A stretch of 64,000 bases of DNA. It comes from Promethearchaeota archaeon. GTDB lineage: Archaea > Asgardarchaeota > Lokiarchaeia > Sigyniarchaeales > SOKP01. The notes below the pieces were generated by a model. The model was given only the letters and a program-made list of their open reading frames with translations. It was not told the origin of the DNA and did not search any database. The position numbers and the translations under genes were made by a program. This document shows positions 54,230 through 61,687 of the stretch, in pieces. Where the stretch lies: positions 40,260 through 104,259 of the forward strand of contig JAHLWS010000021.1 of the NCBI GenBank assembly GCA_019057795.1. The letters are read 5' to 3'. The stretch's first letter is position 1. Each line of letters opens with the position of its first letter.

Positions 54230-55219
54230 ATGTTAACTTCAGAACACATTAAAGAAATTTTAAAGGATTACACTATTAATCTTCGATTCCACGCACGCGG
54301 GGGGCAAGGAGGCGTTACTGCTTCTAACTTATGCGTCGAAGCTTTTTATGGCTATGGCGTCTGTCAACCGAGATTTGGAGCAGAACGAATGGGAAGTCCG
54401 ACTGAAAGCTATGTTAGACTTTCTGCGAACGCAGATTTAGTAAGGTCAAATGAACAAGTGTATGACCCCCATTTCGTAGCTGTGTTAGATGAATCGTTGC
54501 TCTCAGAAGTAGATGTAACTGCTGGTGTACCCAAAGGAGGCTGGTTGATAGTAAATACCGTAGCGGACCAACTAACCATTCAAGAAGCTGTAAAGAGAAA
54601 AGACATAAACATTGCTACAATCGATGCGACACGAATTGCTTTAGATGTTTTAGGTCGAAACATTACAAATACTATTATATTAGGTGCTTTAATAAGAATC
54701 TCTCACCTCTTTACTCTCGAAGAATTATCTAATGCCATCATGAAGCGATTCAAAGGAGCTATAGCTGGAAAAAATATCGAAGCAATAAAGCAAGCAATTG
54801 AAGAAACTTGCATATTTGACATCGGAGTCGAGCCAGATTTTACGGTTGACACTAAAGTACCGTGGCAACAAATAGATTTAGGCTTACCTGGATATAAGGA
54901 ATTAGATAAAGCGGGTGTTTGGTATTGCGACGAAAAAGTAATCCCTGTTGGAAGCGACCAAGTGAATACTGGTTCGTGGGGCGAATGGGATATGATTTGG
55001 GATGCGGAAACATGTACAAATTGCGCTCAGTGTTGGTTTATTTGCCCTGATTTTGCCATTATTAGAGAAAAAAGGGAAGACGGCAAATATCATATGATTG
55101 GAATTGATCTACTTCATTGTAAATCATGTTTAAATTGTCTAAATATCTGCCCTGTTCAAGCAATAAGTAAAAAATTGAAACAAGGACCGGCTGCTTGTGC
55201 AGTACCGGAAGAAAATTAA
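54230..55219 (+). CDS. 2-oxoacid (pyruvate):ferredoxin oxidoreductase, fused gamma and delta subunits
   Basis: RFHARGGQGGVT, FGAERMGSP, NTIILGA (gamma); NTGSW and two CxxCxxCxxxCP motifs (delta). Confidence 0.9.
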   Translation: MLTSEHIKEILKDYTINLRFHARGGQGGVTASNLCVEAFYGYGVCQPRFGAERMGSPTESYVRLSANADLVRSNEQVYDPHFVAVLDESLLSEVDVTAGVPKGGWLIVNTVADQLTIQEAVKRKDINIATIDATRIALDVLGRNITNTIILGALIRISHLFTLEELSNAIMKRFKGAIAGKNIEAIKQAIEETCIFDIGVEPDFTVDTKVPWQQIDLGLPGYKELDKAGVWYCDEKVIPVGSDQVNTGSWGEWDMIWDAETCTNCAQCWFICPDFAIIREKREDGKYHMIGIDLLHCKSCLNCLNICPVQAISKKLKQGPAACAVPEEN

Positions 55220-55387: not shown

Positions 55388-57421
55388 TTGGTTTTTTCTA
55401 AAATAGAGTCTGAATTTTATTTGAAGAAGAAAAAAGATATGTTTTGTCGTAAGCCAGGTAAACCTAAGTGTGATAGAAACATAAATAATTTTAAGAACAC
55501 TTATCACGATTTGGAAAATGAAGTTAAAATTAATCAAAAGAAAGGAAATAAAAAAATAATATCAAATATTGTACCAGAGCGTATACAAACGCAAAAAATT
55601 AATGCAAATGGAGAAATAGACCTTAAAACTTATGCTATAGGAGTTGTTGATAAGTATAAAAAAGAAATCTAAGAGGCTAGGAGAAAATTAGGTTATGGTT
55701 CAAAACAACTTATTTTTGATGATAAACCGATAAGTGCTGCTGATATTGACAATATAGACCAATTAGCTACTAAAAAAGGAAGATCTAAATTATTTTGGTA
55801 TGGTATTATATATCAAATTACTGAAATTGATGAATTTCAAATAAAAGGTGAATCTTATGGTGGAATGACTACACTAACTTTATTTGATAGGTGGCATTTT
55901 GCTGTTAGGGATGCTACAACAAAACCAAAAACCTGGCATTTTCCATTAATTTGGGCGATAAGAAATTATTTATTTAAGGAATTAGGTTTAGATATAGAGG
56001 ATTTAAAGATTAATGGCAAATTTGATTGGAAAAAAATTCATGCTATTCTAGATAAAAGATTTCAAAGAAAAGTGAAAAGGATATGTTTTAACGATAATTC
56101 TTTGAGAATTGAAGAGAGAAAATTTATCAGAGATAATAACTTAATTGAGGATGGGCTAAATATCTCAGGAGGAGGTGAAGGTGGACCTGCAATTGATCTC
56201 CCAATGTTAAGTGTTGCTAAATTAATCGCTTTAGGATTTACAATAACAGATATTCATGATTCAATTGTAAATAAACAACAAATTCAATGTAGTTTACAGA
56301 CAGTAAGACAGCGAATAATCGATTACTGGGAAAGTTTTAAAAATTCTCAAATAATGTTCCTTCGACCAGTATTAGAGAAACTTATTAAAGCTCGTTTTGA
56401 ACTTTATGAAATTAATCAGGTTTTTGGCAGGTTCATGCTTGACCGGATAAAACTTTTTTTTGGAGGTCTCTCTTATCGTCAATTATTAAAAACTATCGAT
56501 CATGATTGGTCTTGTCTTTCAATTTCGGATAGATTCCCATCATGGACAAATCAAGGTAGGATAACGGCAATTATACCAATTGAAACCCTAAAATATTTAG
56601 TTCGATGTTACCTTTATGCTAATGAAGCTATTAGGGATAAAAAAGTTCAAATTATTTTATCTGAGTACAGTAGTTCAGATGTTAAAAGGCAAAATTTAGT
56701 CTATCAGGTACAACAACAATTAGATTACGGTAATTGGGAGGAGGCAAGAGAAGCAATAACAATCCCCCTTGTATTGAAAAAGTTAAGAGAAGGTAAAAAT
56801 TCACCTAAACAAATTTACAGATCTATTGGTTATAATGAAAGTTCGGCTCACACTCATAACACGCTTAGTAGAGAATTATTTTTAGGCTTAAATACCAATG
56901 AATTGAGAGATTTCTTGAGAAGATATTCTAATGTTCAAACTTATGATGATTTCAAAAAAATTTATTTGCTTGAAAAGGAGAAAATTATTAAATGCATTAA
57001 TAAAGATTTTGTGGATAAATTACTCTTCAAATATATAAGATCTGATAAAGCAGCAAAGGAATTAGAGGGTTTTTATTCAGGCGATTTTCTTAAAGAGCTT
57101 AACAAATATTATCCAAGTTATAAAAAAGCAAAATGGATTGTAAAAGCTCCATTTATTATTAAAAATCTAAGAAAGTTACCAAAAAATTACAATAGCAGAG
57201 ATGTTGAGCAAATTTTTAGAAATATAGGATATAGTAAAAAAAGTGCTGAAAATTATGGTAGAATAATTCAAGATATGTTTTTTGGTATGGGAATAAAAGA
57301 AAGTATTATTTTTTTTACAAACCATCCTAATATAAATACTTATGAAGAAGCTTTAAATGCTTACAAGAGCGAACATAGAATTGATATATTAAAACCTCAT
57401 AGAAGTAAATATTATAAATAG
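55388..57421 (+). pseudogene. GIY-YIG endonuclease-like gene with an in-frame TAA at 55670-55672, located inside the por operon
   Basis: ORFs 55388-55672 and 55865-57421 are in the same frame. The stretch between them is open and encodes YGIIYQITE...ESYGGMTT..LFDRW; later comes EERKFI...GLNISGGGEG. Confidence 0.65.
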
Positions 57422-57619: not shown

Positions 57620-58831
57620 ATGAAACTTTTTTTTAAAGAGATTAAAGAGCCCATCGAGACGGCAATGATTGGAAATTACGCTGTGGCCGGGGGAGTTACT
57701 CAAACGGACCCTGATGTAATTTGTGCTTTTCCTATTACCCCTCAAACTCAATCCGTTGAAGGATTATCTGATGTCGTTCACCAAGGAAGATTAAAAGCGG
57801 CTTTCGTTAATGTCGAATCCGAATTAGCCGCTATGAGTTATTCAACGGCAGCTTGCGCTGCTGGTGCCAGAACTTTTACTGCTACAGCATCACAAGGCTA
57901 TTTATTAATGACTGAAGCCTTGCCTATGGCAGTTGGTTGGCGCGTCCCGTTAACGATGATGATCTCAGCGAGAGCTTTTAATGCTCCCAATCTTTCTATA
58001 TGGAACAGTTGGAGTGATTTCGTTTTGTTTGATGTTGGGTGGAACTGTGTAGTATCGGAGAATGTGCAAGAAACCTACGATGCAGCAATTTTGTCAGTTA
58101 TGATGTCTGACAATTCTTTGTTTCCAACTATGTTTGTACACGACGGTTTTATTATTTCTCATTCCGTTCAGAAATTATGGTTAATTCCAGACGAGATTGT
58201 ACGGAAATTAACGCCAAAAAAGCCTCGCCACACAATTTCAACAAAGCGTCCTGGTGTATGGGGTGGGATTGTAACTCCCAGCTTTTTTATGGAGGGACGA
58301 AAAAATCTTGACGAAGCGAAGAAACCCGTGTTAGATATAATGAAAAAGGCGTTCGAAGAATTCGGAAAAGCAACTGGGCGCCACTATAACTTAATTGAAA
58401 CCTACAACTTAGATAACTCTTCAAAAACAGCTTTTATTACTATGGGAAGCATGTGTGGAAACATCATTAGTTGGATGACTAAAAACAAGGACATAGGACT
58501 AATTAAAATCAGAGCTTATAGACCTTTCCCTTACGAGGAATTACAAAAGATTGTCCAAAAACATAACATCGAAAAACTAATAATTCTAGAAAAATCAGAT
58601 TCGCTGAACAATCTTTTACCTCCATTTGCCACTTCAATAGCAACAGCGTTATATCCGCTTAAAACTCTATTTAGATGCTATATTGTTGGACTAGGTGGAC
58701 GGGACGTTACTCGAGATGAGTTTACTGTCGCAAAAAAGAAAATGGAATCTGTAAACGATATGAAAGGACCGCTCTATAGTTACCTTGGCGTACGGGAGAC
58801 TAAGGATAAAATCTATGAGGTGAACATGTAA
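57620..58831 (+). CDS. porA: 2-oxoacid (pyruvate):ferredoxin oxidoreductase alpha subunit
   Basis: GNYAVA, FPITPQT, VESE.AAMS, GARTFTATASQG, DGFIISH, GLGGRD. Confidence 0.9.
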   Translation: MKLFFKEIKEPIETAMIGNYAVAGGVTQTDPDVICAFPITPQTQSVEGLSDVVHQGRLKAAFVNVESELAAMSYSTAACAAGARTFTATASQGYLLMTEALPMAVGWRVPLTMMISARAFNAPNLSIWNSWSDFVLFDVGWNCVVSENVQETYDAAILSVMMSDNSLFPTMFVHDGFIISHSVQKLWLIPDEIVRKLTPKKPRHTISTKRPGVWGGIVTPSFFMEGRKNLDEAKKPVLDIMKKAFEEFGKATGRHYNLIETYNLDNSSKTAFITMGSMCGNIISWMTKNKDIGLIKIRAYRPFPYEELQKIVQKHNIEKLIILEKSDSLNNLLPPFATSIATALYPLKTLFRCYIVGLGGRDVTRDEFTVAKKKMESVNDMKGPLYSYLGVRETKDKIYEVNM

Positions 58832-58832
58832 G

Positions 58833-59921
58833 ATGTCAAAACCAGAAAAAAATATAATTAAATTCGAAGATATCTTAGCAAGAGATGGCAAATGTAACGT
58901 TTTATTTTTAAACTACGATAACGAAGCTTTTATGAACACTGGAATTCAAGAATCAGGCGCTACACCACCTCACGCTTCGACAACCACCGGACCCGGTGGA
59001 GAAAAGATTCCCGGTAAAGTTGGTGTAAAACAAGATTTAGTTACTCCTTTTGCTTTTTATGGGACAAAATCGTTATTTTTAGCAACGGCAAACCCCGCTT
59101 ATCCAGCAGATTTTATGGGAAAAGTTGCTGATGCGTTAAAGTCAAATGGGTCTGCTTTCATTCAATCAATAGCTGATTGCATGAGAGGATGGCGACATCC
59201 CGCCGAAGACGCCGTGAAAATCTCAAAATTAGCTACAGATTGCGGTTATTGGCCTCTTTACACTATTAGAGTAAAAGATGGCATTCCAACATTTTCTTAT
59301 TATCGCGGATTAGATATAGATAAGGAGAAATTTGTAGAATACTTAAAATCTATGGGTCGGTTTAGACATCTCTTTAAGCCACAGTTTTTAGAAAAAGAAA
59401 TTGACGAAATAATTTACTATACTGAACAACGTAACCTTAAACTAAAAGGGCTTATTGAACAGTTTGGAGCCGAAAAACCAATAGACTTTTATCAGGTAAA
59501 TCGAAGAACTTTAGAACCTCAACAGCATCTCCATCCTGGACACGGACTTTGCCCCGGGTGTGGCGCTGGAATGGTCTTGAATCAGATGGCTACAGCAGCT
59601 ACAGCAGTCGCGGGTAACAACATTATTTACGTGAATAATACGAGTTGCAGTGAAGTATCGACAGCAAAAGATTTTGTGACATCTTGGAAAGTTCCTTGGG
59701 TTCACCACTTATTTGAAAGCGGAGCTACTATAGCTGAAGGAATAAGCACAACTTACAAAATCCTTAAATCTAAAGGTTTGTTCAAAGGAGAGGTGCCGTA
59801 TGTTATACACATTGCCGGCGACGGGTCAACCTACGACATAGGGTTCCAATTCCTTAAAGCAGCCCTTATCCGAACAAGCTCTTTCGTTGAAATGAACGAA
59901 TACTTGACGAACCCAAAATAA
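58833..59921 (+). CDS. porB: 2-oxoacid (pyruvate):ferredoxin oxidoreductase beta subunit, circularly permuted
   Basis: YDNEAFMNTGIQ near residue 28, GHGLCPGCG near 236-244 and GDGSTYDIG at 329. The order of the two halves is reversed relative to canonical PorB. Confidence 0.85.
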   Translation: MSKPEKNIIKFEDILARDGKCNVLFLNYDNEAFMNTGIQESGATPPHASTTTGPGGEKIPGKVGVKQDLVTPFAFYGTKSLFLATANPAYPADFMGKVADALKSNGSAFIQSIADCMRGWRHPAEDAVKISKLATDCGYWPLYTIRVKDGIPTFSYYRGLDIDKEKFVEYLKSMGRFRHLFKPQFLEKEIDEIIYYTEQRNLKLKGLIEQFGAEKPIDFYQVNRRTLEPQQHLHPGHGLCPGCGAGMVLNQMATAATAVAGNNIIYVNNTSCSEVSTAKDFVTSWKVPWVHHLFESGATIAEGISTTYKILKSKGLFKGEVPYVIHIAGDGSTYDIGFQFLKAALIRTSSFVEMNEYLTNPK

Positions 59922-60382: not shown

Positions 60383-61687
60383 ATGAATAAAAAAAATGAC
60401 ATCGAAATGAGTCTACAAAGATGTTTAGCAAGTCGTAAGGACTGTTCAGGGGATGGTAGAACTTTATCAATGACTGAGATATTGGATATCTGTAAATCGA
60501 CCAACCAAGCAGCACCTTCAAAGTCTTTATTTGTAGTACTCCCCGATGGAGAGCACTATTCTGGTGGAATATATTCGTATAAAGAAGAACAGTTAGCGTT
60601 AATTTCTGATAAAGAAAAAACAAAATTTACTATGGAACTTTATCCCGAATTGTTTTGGAAGGAATCTATTGAATTCGAGGATTTAATTCGGGTAGGGATT
60701 ACATGGCAATATCTCTCATTAAAAGTGGATAGTATAGGGCTTGGTGTATCACAAAGGGCAAGAGCGCCTAAAAAATACAATAAACTCGTTAACAATTTAA
60801 CGAACCAAAAATATGCCTTTTTATATTCGGTAGCAGTTCGAGAGAGAGATAGGGCAGCCTTAGTAGAAGATACTGTAGAACCTCTTCAAAAAAAAGTAGA
60901 AGATGGCACGATCTTACTCGACACTCCAGCTTGCTACAAGGACCGCGCAATCTATAAGAATAAGTATAAAGGAATTCCAATAGATGACGTTATTTTTAAT
61001 CGGGTTGATGAAAAGGCACTAAATAATATGAATTTGCACCAAATCTCTCAACTACTTTGGGCTTGCCAAGGAGAAAACGATCATACGACGCATGGAAATC
61101 GTGATGCTTTAGAGAAAAATGGTTACGGTCGTGTTCATGCATCAGGATGTGCGGGATATGCAGTATATCCAATAGTTTATATAGAAGATCTTGCTAATGT
61201 CCCTAATGGATCATACCATTATAATCCAGTAGGATATTCTGCGTTAAATAGATGGATTAAGGTTAATGGAACCGTAACATATGATCATTTTATGCAAAAA
61301 TTTAGCTCTGAGACTTTTAGAGCTGAGATTGAAAAGGAGTTTGATACTAATTTCTCTAATTATGCCATATTATTATGTATTGATCGAAAAAAACCTTGCG
61401 CGGGATTAATGCACAGAGTTATGAATCTTAAATATTGGGCCGAAGTTGAGGCTGGAATGGCGGTAGCAGGGTTACAATTACAGGCAAATGCTCTAGGTTT
61501 GAAATGGAAAAAGAAAATATTATCAAATCCCGATAATCCCACATATAGAAAATTGTTCAATCTCAATTCTGCTGAACAGTCGATAAATAGTACGGCAAAA
61601 TTTTTAGTAAATCGGGCAAAAAATGAACGGATATCCCTTGAAGGAAATTTAATACCAATTGTATTATTTCATTTATTAGAGGGATAA
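60383..61687 (+). CDS. Nitroreductase-superfamily (SagB/ThcOx-like) protein, apparently with a degenerate N-terminal copy of the domain
   Basis: ISQLLWACQG, RVHASGCAGY, GSYHYNP and EAGMAV..LQLQANALGL resemble the SagB-family pattern LSQLLW.AQG / R..PS.G..YP / G.YHY.P / EAG.....L.A.ALGL. Confidence 0.65.
   Translation: MNKKNDIEMSLQRCLASRKDCSGDGRTLSMTEILDICKSTNQAAPSKSLFVVLPDGEHYSGGIYSYKEEQLALISDKEKTKFTMELYPELFWKESIEFEDLIRVGITWQYLSLKVDSIGLGVSQRARAPKKYNKLVNNLTNQKYAFLYSVAVRERDRAALVEDTVEPLQKKVEDGTILLDTPACYKDRAIYKNKYKGIPIDDVIFNRVDEKALNNMNLHQISQLLWACQGENDHTTHGNRDALEKNGYGRVHASGCAGYAVYPIVYIEDLANVPNGSYHYNPVGYSALNRWIKVNGTVTYDHFMQKFSSETFRAEIEKEFDTNFSNYAILLCIDRKKPCAGLMHRVMNLKYWAEVEAGMAVAGLQLQANALGLKWKKKILSNPDNPTYRKLFNLNSAEQSINSTAKFLVNRAKNERISLEGNLIPIVLFHLLEG

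Follow-up and report, generated by a model that had tools for sequence, protein, structure and literature searches.

A circularly permuted beta subunit of a 2-oxoacid:ferredoxin oxidoreductase in the archaeal class Lokiarchaeia

The open reading frame at 58833..59921 on the + strand of the 64,000-nucleotide window, by which we mean the whole stretch of DNA that was analysed, is a true circular permutant of the beta subunit of the 2-oxoacid:ferredoxin oxidoreductases (OFOR). The protein begins with the C-terminal half of a canonical PorB and ends with the N-terminal half, and the gene is here called porB(cp). Our overall reading, in which we place high confidence, is that it encodes a working Por/Vor-type beta subunit, which would pair with PorA and have a single origin, probably by tandem duplication.

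Rotated order of the two PorB halves

A phmmer search against the sequences in PDB aligned residues 229-347 of the protein to positions 13-127, and residues 22-188 to positions 130-291, of the beta subunit of oxalate oxidoreductase (OOR; 5c4i_C). The same rotated order was obtained with the PorB of M. acetivorans (9bt4_C). In a canonical profile built from 51 canonical PorBs, residues 22-193 matched positions 126-292 (145.9 bits), while residues 226-352 matched positions 7-128 (115.2 bits). Chance matching is excluded, since the E-values range from 1e-18 to 1e-45 per half. These alignments confirm the first-pass annotation, which had described a circularly permuted PorB with its ThDP motif split between the two ends of the chain, and all the features named in it were recovered at the coordinates given there.

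The gene is a single intact frame of 362 codons plus stop, as had been noted from the sequence, with an ATG at 58833 and a stop codon at 59919-59921. The stop codon of porA is located at 58829-58831, which leaves the gap of one nucleotide that was also recorded earlier. A Shine-Dalgarno-like site, GAGGTGA (58817..58823, + strand), is placed within the end of porA, 9 nt ahead of the ATG of porB(cp).

The protein can be divided into five segments, all encoded on the + strand. A new N-terminal extension, residues 1-21 (58833..58895), falls outside the canonical profile, and residues 1-20 are modelled by AF2 with a short strand at 6-10 and a helix at 11-15 (pLDDT 75-93). The canonical C-terminal half covers residues 22-193 (58896..59411; 130-291 in 5c4i_C) and contains the YDNE motif (58914-58925), NTG, the cluster ligand C116 (59178-59180) and GRFRHL. 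It is followed by a linker, residues 194-225 (59412..59507), which according to the fit to the canonical alignment and the AF2 model consists of the old C-terminal helix and the old N-terminal head. The region is modelled as a helix at 187-211 and a strand at 212-221 (pLDDT 81-91), and the top-ranking, albeit weak, fit of residues 186-212 is to the final 27 columns of the canonical alignment (rank 1, z 3.4). The canonical N-terminal half, residues 226-352 (59508..59888; 13-127 in 5c4i_C), contains the CPGC motif with C240 (59550-59552) and C243 (59559-59561), C272 (59646-59648) and GDG (59817-59825). The last ten residues, 353-362 (59889..59918), form a new C-terminal tail outside the canonical profile, in which the family consensus MNEYL is moderately conserved.

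The YDNE motif is thereby located at residues 28-31 from the N-terminus and the GDG motif at residues 329-331, which is 32-34 residues from the C-terminus. In a set of 22 diverse orthologs, with identities down to 55% and a mean column identity of 73%, Y28-D29-N30-E31, N35-T36-G37 and G329-D330-G331 are invariant. The cysteines C116, C240, C243 and C272 show no variation in these orthologs either, in agreement with the earlier observation that all four Fe-S cysteines have been kept.

Distribution and phylogenetic placement

The first-pass annotation had proposed a search for the permuted order in Asgard genomes, and the search revealed a gene that is widespread within a single class. It is present in 131 of the 161 genomes of Lokiarchaeia (Promethearchaeia at NCBI), including all 7 families and 35 of the 40 high-quality genomes, and in only 1 of the approximately 223 other Asgard genomes sampled. 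This sole match outside the class is located on a 2.8-kb contig, shows 86% identity and comes from a bin with 8% contamination; it is probably a misbinned contig. The permuted operon was also observed, at 82-89% identity, on contigs labelled “Nanopelagicaceae bacterium” (L034 = DATKTW010000155.1), “Odinarchaeota” (L101), “Thorarchaeota” (L049) and “Hodarchaeota” (L061). These contigs are likely to be misbinned or mislabelled, since in the grouping by genomes the gene is restricted to a single class.

Exact-sequence look-ups identified the gene in three closed genomes, two of which come from cultures: Promethearchaeum syntrophicum MK-D1 (DSAG12_00808, QEE14985.1), Candidatus Lokiarchaeum ossiferum (NEF87_002873, UYP46588.1) and Candidatus Harpocratesius repetitus. 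It is named “hypothetical protein” by NCBI in all three. The source genome consists of 87 contigs with 7.5% contamination, as might be expected if the rotated order were produced by a collapsed or mis-joined porB tandem repeat in a metagenome bin. The chance of such an assembly artefact is vanishingly small. Independent projects have yielded over 100 clusters of proteins that are 355-370 amino acids long and collinear with the query, identity declines smoothly from 98% to 52%, and the presence of the permuted gene in independent closed genomes refutes the artefact. The misassembly that the first-pass annotation had been concerned about is therefore excluded. A single internal stop (TGA, TAG or TAA) was seen in a few orthologs (genomes G321, G377, G376, G301 and G019), which could represent pseudogenes, sequencing errors or recoding. 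What looked like a fusion of alpha and beta in genome G153 (715 aa) was discarded, as the frame runs through the Ns of a scaffold gap.

Of the 271 proteins that were fetched, 123 show the C-N order and 126 the N-C order, and none is arranged as N-C-N or C-N-C. Longer relatives in the order N-C-N', which the first-pass annotation had contemplated, were found neither in these proteins, nor in a search for longer relatives, nor among the best 150 matches listed by HMMER, which was run exhaustively on 1.84 billion representatives. The same 150 listed matches included one further full-length collinear representative (P0122, 55%) as well as fragments, and in the remaining full-length proteins the two stretches follow the canonical order.

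For the phylogeny, the permuted sequences were rearranged to canonical order for alignment only. The permuted proteins formed one clade with an SH-aLRT support of 100 on a stem of 1.42 substitutions per site, which emerges from a basal polytomy. The two canonical PorBs of the source genome, located on contigs C31 and C70, were placed elsewhere in the tree. The topology suggests a single permutation event on the stem lineage of Lokiarchaeia.

The scores of porB(cp) against the NCBIfam models for Por, Vor and OOR are similar: 217.7 bits for PorB (NF008819), where the cut-off is 405, 195 bits for OOR-beta and 181 bits for Vor-beta. The NF008819 match is broken into two stretches in swapped order, and no collinear match above the cut-off was obtained. 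The source genome also contains two canonical Por/Vor alpha-beta pairs, which score 370-415 bits, and judging from the sequences the enzyme encoded by porGD-porA-porB(cp) would be a third, divergent enzyme of the Por/Vor type. Pyruvate is assigned as its putative substrate by annotation only. The low Por scores, together with the presence of the two better-scoring canonical Por/Vor pairs, suggest that the substrate could differ from pyruvate. DSAG12_00808 is listed as PFOR beta (K00170) in Imachi et al. 2020, where the rearrangement is not mentioned (PMC7015854).

Gene neighbourhood, structural models and predicted function

The genes for the alpha and the gamma/delta subunits are located upstream of porB(cp) on the same strand. 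The first gene, porGD (54230..55219, + strand), encodes a protein of 329 amino acids in which a gamma domain (Pfam POR, 4.6e-27) is fused to a delta domain of the 2x[4Fe-4S] ferredoxin type (Fer4 domains), with NCBIfam scores of 155 bits for PorC_KorC and 55 bits for PorD_KorD. The alpha subunit of 403 amino acids is encoded by porA (57620..58831, + strand) and contains a Pyr domain (POR_N, 6.5e-54) and domain II (PFOR_II, 8.2e-13); it scores 300 bits against PorA_Arch, the cut-off of which is 550. Neighbouring alpha and gamma/delta genes accompany this member of the OFOR beta family in the window as well as in about 100 related loci, and the order porGD-porA-porB(cp) is kept in nearly all of these loci.

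The open reading frame list and the related loci delimit an insert of about 2.4 kb between porGD and porA, with ORFs of 94 and 518 amino acids (55388..57421, + strand), the longer of which has no Pfam match. The insert is missing at the same position in nearly all relatives, where porGD and porA are spaced by about 30 nt, and it does not belong to the enzyme. One related locus (L048) has a similarly sized gap at the same position but gave no tblastn match to the 518-aa ORF. Downstream of porB(cp), an ORF of 434 amino acids (60383-61687) has only weak, sub-threshold Pfam matches; it directly follows porB(cp) in several close relatives (L009-L011, L025, L031-L034) and not in most others. In several MAGs, the last third of porB(cp) occurs a second time, as a partial copy 0.5-2.5 kb downstream of the intact gene (L095:3596-3946, L042:2079-2231, L067:6114-6266 and L090:3752-3961). 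The partial copies start at residue ~247 or ~308, end at ~360 and show 49-78% identity. The copy in L095 is an ORF of 116 amino acids, and two unrelated genes are placed between this copy and the intact gene.

The AF2 model of PorB(cp), made from the alignment of 22 rows, has a pTM of 0.83 and a mean pLDDT of 74. The pLDDT drops below 50 in the loops that contain the cofactor ligands (31-62, 117-120, 235-242 and 274-282), as expected since the partner and the cofactors are absent from the model. The best structural match is domain VI of the PFOR from D. africanus (1b0p_A; Z 11.7 and rmsd 3.5 for 180 aligned residues). A Z of 9.4 was obtained with OOR beta and a Z of 9.2 with the PorB of M. acetivorans (9bt4_C; rmsd 3.1, 163 residues), with residues 18-205 of the model placed on 89-294 of the chain. 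The other half of the model matches the Sulfolobus OFOR beta separately (Z 4.7). Foldseek and VIA cover only about half of the model because both align sequentially, which is expected for a permutant.

A complex of PorA and PorB(cp), the modelling of which had been suggested in the first-pass annotation, was predicted with a score of 0.78, while the best control scored 0.00; this mark was reached by 58 of 80 solved complexes and by 2 of 110 mismatched pairs. The contacts agreed by at least 98% between runs, and the pLDDT of the partner was at least 85. The modelled interface brings residues 59-83 of PorA, including the region of the invariant E66/E68, together with residues 262-347 of PorB(cp) and residues 354 and 358 of its tail. 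The model supports the binding of PorA by PorB(cp), but because OFOR complexes have already been solved, the result may reflect a likeness to these structures rather than constitute proof.

The porB(cp) product is predicted to form the ThDP diphosphate-binding PP domain and to carry the proximal [4Fe-4S] cluster of a 2-oxoacid:ferredoxin oxidoreductase. A structured linker of about 35-40 residues (approximately 189-228) would join the old C- and N-termini, while the new termini would fall in the short turn that connects the helix following GDG to the beta-strand leading to YDNE. In a doubly wound alpha/beta domain, such a turn lies at the sheet edge opposite to the ligand-binding ends of the strands. 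Since the turn is opposite to the cofactor, the fold topology suggests that D330 of GDG and N30 of YDNE can still meet at the Mg-ThDP despite a separation of 300 residues along the chain, in which case the ThDP motif would be broken in sequence and not in space. We propose that the porGD-porA-porB(cp) operon is expressed, with the translation of porB(cp) coupled to that of porA, and that PorB(cp) and PorA together form the ThDP site. A 2-oxoacid would be oxidised to acyl-CoA, and electrons would pass from the cluster of PorB(cp) itself to the two clusters of the delta part and reduce ferredoxin.

An alternative is that porB(cp) encodes an inactive relic or a non-catalytic paralog that does not bind ThDP and serves as a scaffold or remains idle, while the two canonical pairs catalyse the reaction. 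The much better fit of these pairs to the Por/Vor models and the long stem of the permuted clade would be compatible with this, but we regard it as very unlikely. All ligands for Mg/ThDP and the cluster are invariant across the class, the operon has been conserved with its own alpha and gamma-delta genes, and across the 131 genomes, internal stops interrupt only about 6 of the listed matches. Furthermore, the gene is transcribed in MK-D1 at levels like those of its neighbours, with RPKM values of 286 for beta, 372 for alpha and 314 for gamma/delta (Imachi et al. 2020, Supplementary Table 3, PMC7015854). The invariant ligands, the operon, the model of the complex and the transcription in MK-D1 also support the first-pass suggestion of a natural and possibly functional permutant.

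Origin, comparison with known systems and significance

The most likely route to the permuted gene would be a tandem duplication in which the copies were fused in frame and the two outer halves were lost. In the canonical profile, the C-terminal half starts at a median position of 124 and the N-terminal half ends at a median position of 128 (102 sequences), which corresponds to an overlap of about 5 positions. A process of duplication, fusion and trimming fits this overlap and the retention of the intact old termini in the linker. The first-pass suggestion of tandem duplication and trimming thus gains plausibility from the overlap and from the whole old C-terminal helix in the linker, while no intermediate in the order N-C-N-C or N-C-N was found among the 271 proteins, in the search for longer proteins or among the best 150 HMMER matches listed; on these grounds it is a plausible, weakly supported origin. 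The terminal extensions were also considered as relics of the trimmed halves, and residues 1-21 and 348-362 were slid along the canonical alignment. This was rejected, as the expected positions reached only ranks 3-4 (z 2.3-3.0).

The same functional permutant could instead have been produced by fission at the turn between GDG and YDNE and re-fusion in reverse order, maybe promoted by an intein or a homing endonuclease. Some canonical relatives contain inteins within the same motif, between GDG and S, between YV and CYDNE and between YMN and TG, and a mobile-looking insert is present within the same operon. However, the nearest intein site does not coincide with the break, which is located 6-10 residues further upstream, for which reason we do not claim a link between inteins and the break. 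The only Pfam match of the porB(cp) protein (P0001) is TPP_enzyme_C and it has no intein domain, whereas the intein-bearing relatives, with Intein_splicing and LAGLIDADG_3 domains (P0125, P0314-P0319, P0135 and P0143), are all in canonical order. Three apparent C-half-only proteins (P0209, P0225 and P0226) were dismissed as split-gene ancestors because they are fragments, and their clusters hold full-length proteins of 301-310 amino acids. Moreover, a split at a single point would not give the overlap of about 5 profile positions. We consider fission and re-fusion to be a rather unlikely route, and prefer tandem duplication and trimming. As a separate observation, P0143 contains two inteins, and one of the intein-bearing clusters is labelled Altiarchaeales.

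The closest functional comparison is with PorB of the archaeal four-subunit PFOR (M. acetivorans, 9bt4 chain C; NF008819). The two share the fold of the PP domain, the GDG...YDNE...NTG motif, the four cysteines for the proximal [4Fe-4S] cluster and the porA and gamma/delta gene neighbours, and each half is about 30-40% identical. Unlike the archaeal PorB, the chain of PorB(cp) is rotated, its motif is split between the termini, and it contains about 60 extra residues in the extension, the linker and the tail. The gamma and delta parts next to porB(cp) are encoded by one fused gene, which also differs from the M. acetivorans-type PFOR. The best sequence match among solved structures is the OOR beta of Moorella thermoacetica (5c4i/5exd chain C; E 4.7e-46 in two stretches). 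OOR also has a subunit of the fused gamma-delta type, which porGD matches at 72 bits. However, OOR beta has the canonical order and OOR does not use CoA, and there is no indication that oxalate is the substrate of the porB(cp) enzyme.

Natural circular permutants are known from the swaposins and the DNA methyltransferases, where they are explained by a model of duplication, fusion and trimming. PorB(cp) resembles these in keeping the same fold with relocated termini, in connecting the old termini through terminal segments that were retained, and in the monophyly of the permuted proteins. It differs from them in that the cut is placed, in sequence, inside the signature ThDP motif, and in that no tandem intermediate was found in our searches. 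Domain rearrangements in ThDP enzymes, such as PP-Pyr versus Pyr-PP orders and the split transketolase (PMC7661550, PMC2831816), similarly preserve the ThDP site. These cases move or split whole domains, whereas in PorB(cp) a single PP domain is permuted internally.

No description of a permuted PorB was found in the literature, and the terms “permut”, “Asgard” and “Loki” are absent from a November 2026 review of PFOR diversity. It is fairly likely that porB(cp) represents the first natural circular permutation within the PP domain of a ThDP enzyme, in which the GDG-X(n)-N motif is built from the two termini of the chain in an active enzyme, and at the same time a rare genomic change that marks Lokiarchaeia. 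If so, the signature motif of ThDP enzymes can withstand being severed and relocated to the two ends of the chain, and the protein would provide a natural template for the engineering of split or permuted OFORs. The gene would also be a clean phylogenetic and binning marker for Lokiarchaeia, including both cultured Asgard archaea. As a rare genomic change of one class, it would help to check the taxonomy and binning of contigs labelled Nanopelagicaceae, Thor-, Odin- and Hodarchaeota.

The label “hypothetical” at NCBI is due to the failure of the curated PorB model on the swapped order, and reconstructions of Asgard metabolism that are based on models of this kind can thus overlook an entire oxoacid oxidoreductase. 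Such oxidoreductases are central to the fermentation of amino acids and pyruvate, and to the syntrophic transfer of hydrogen and formate in scenarios for eukaryogenesis.
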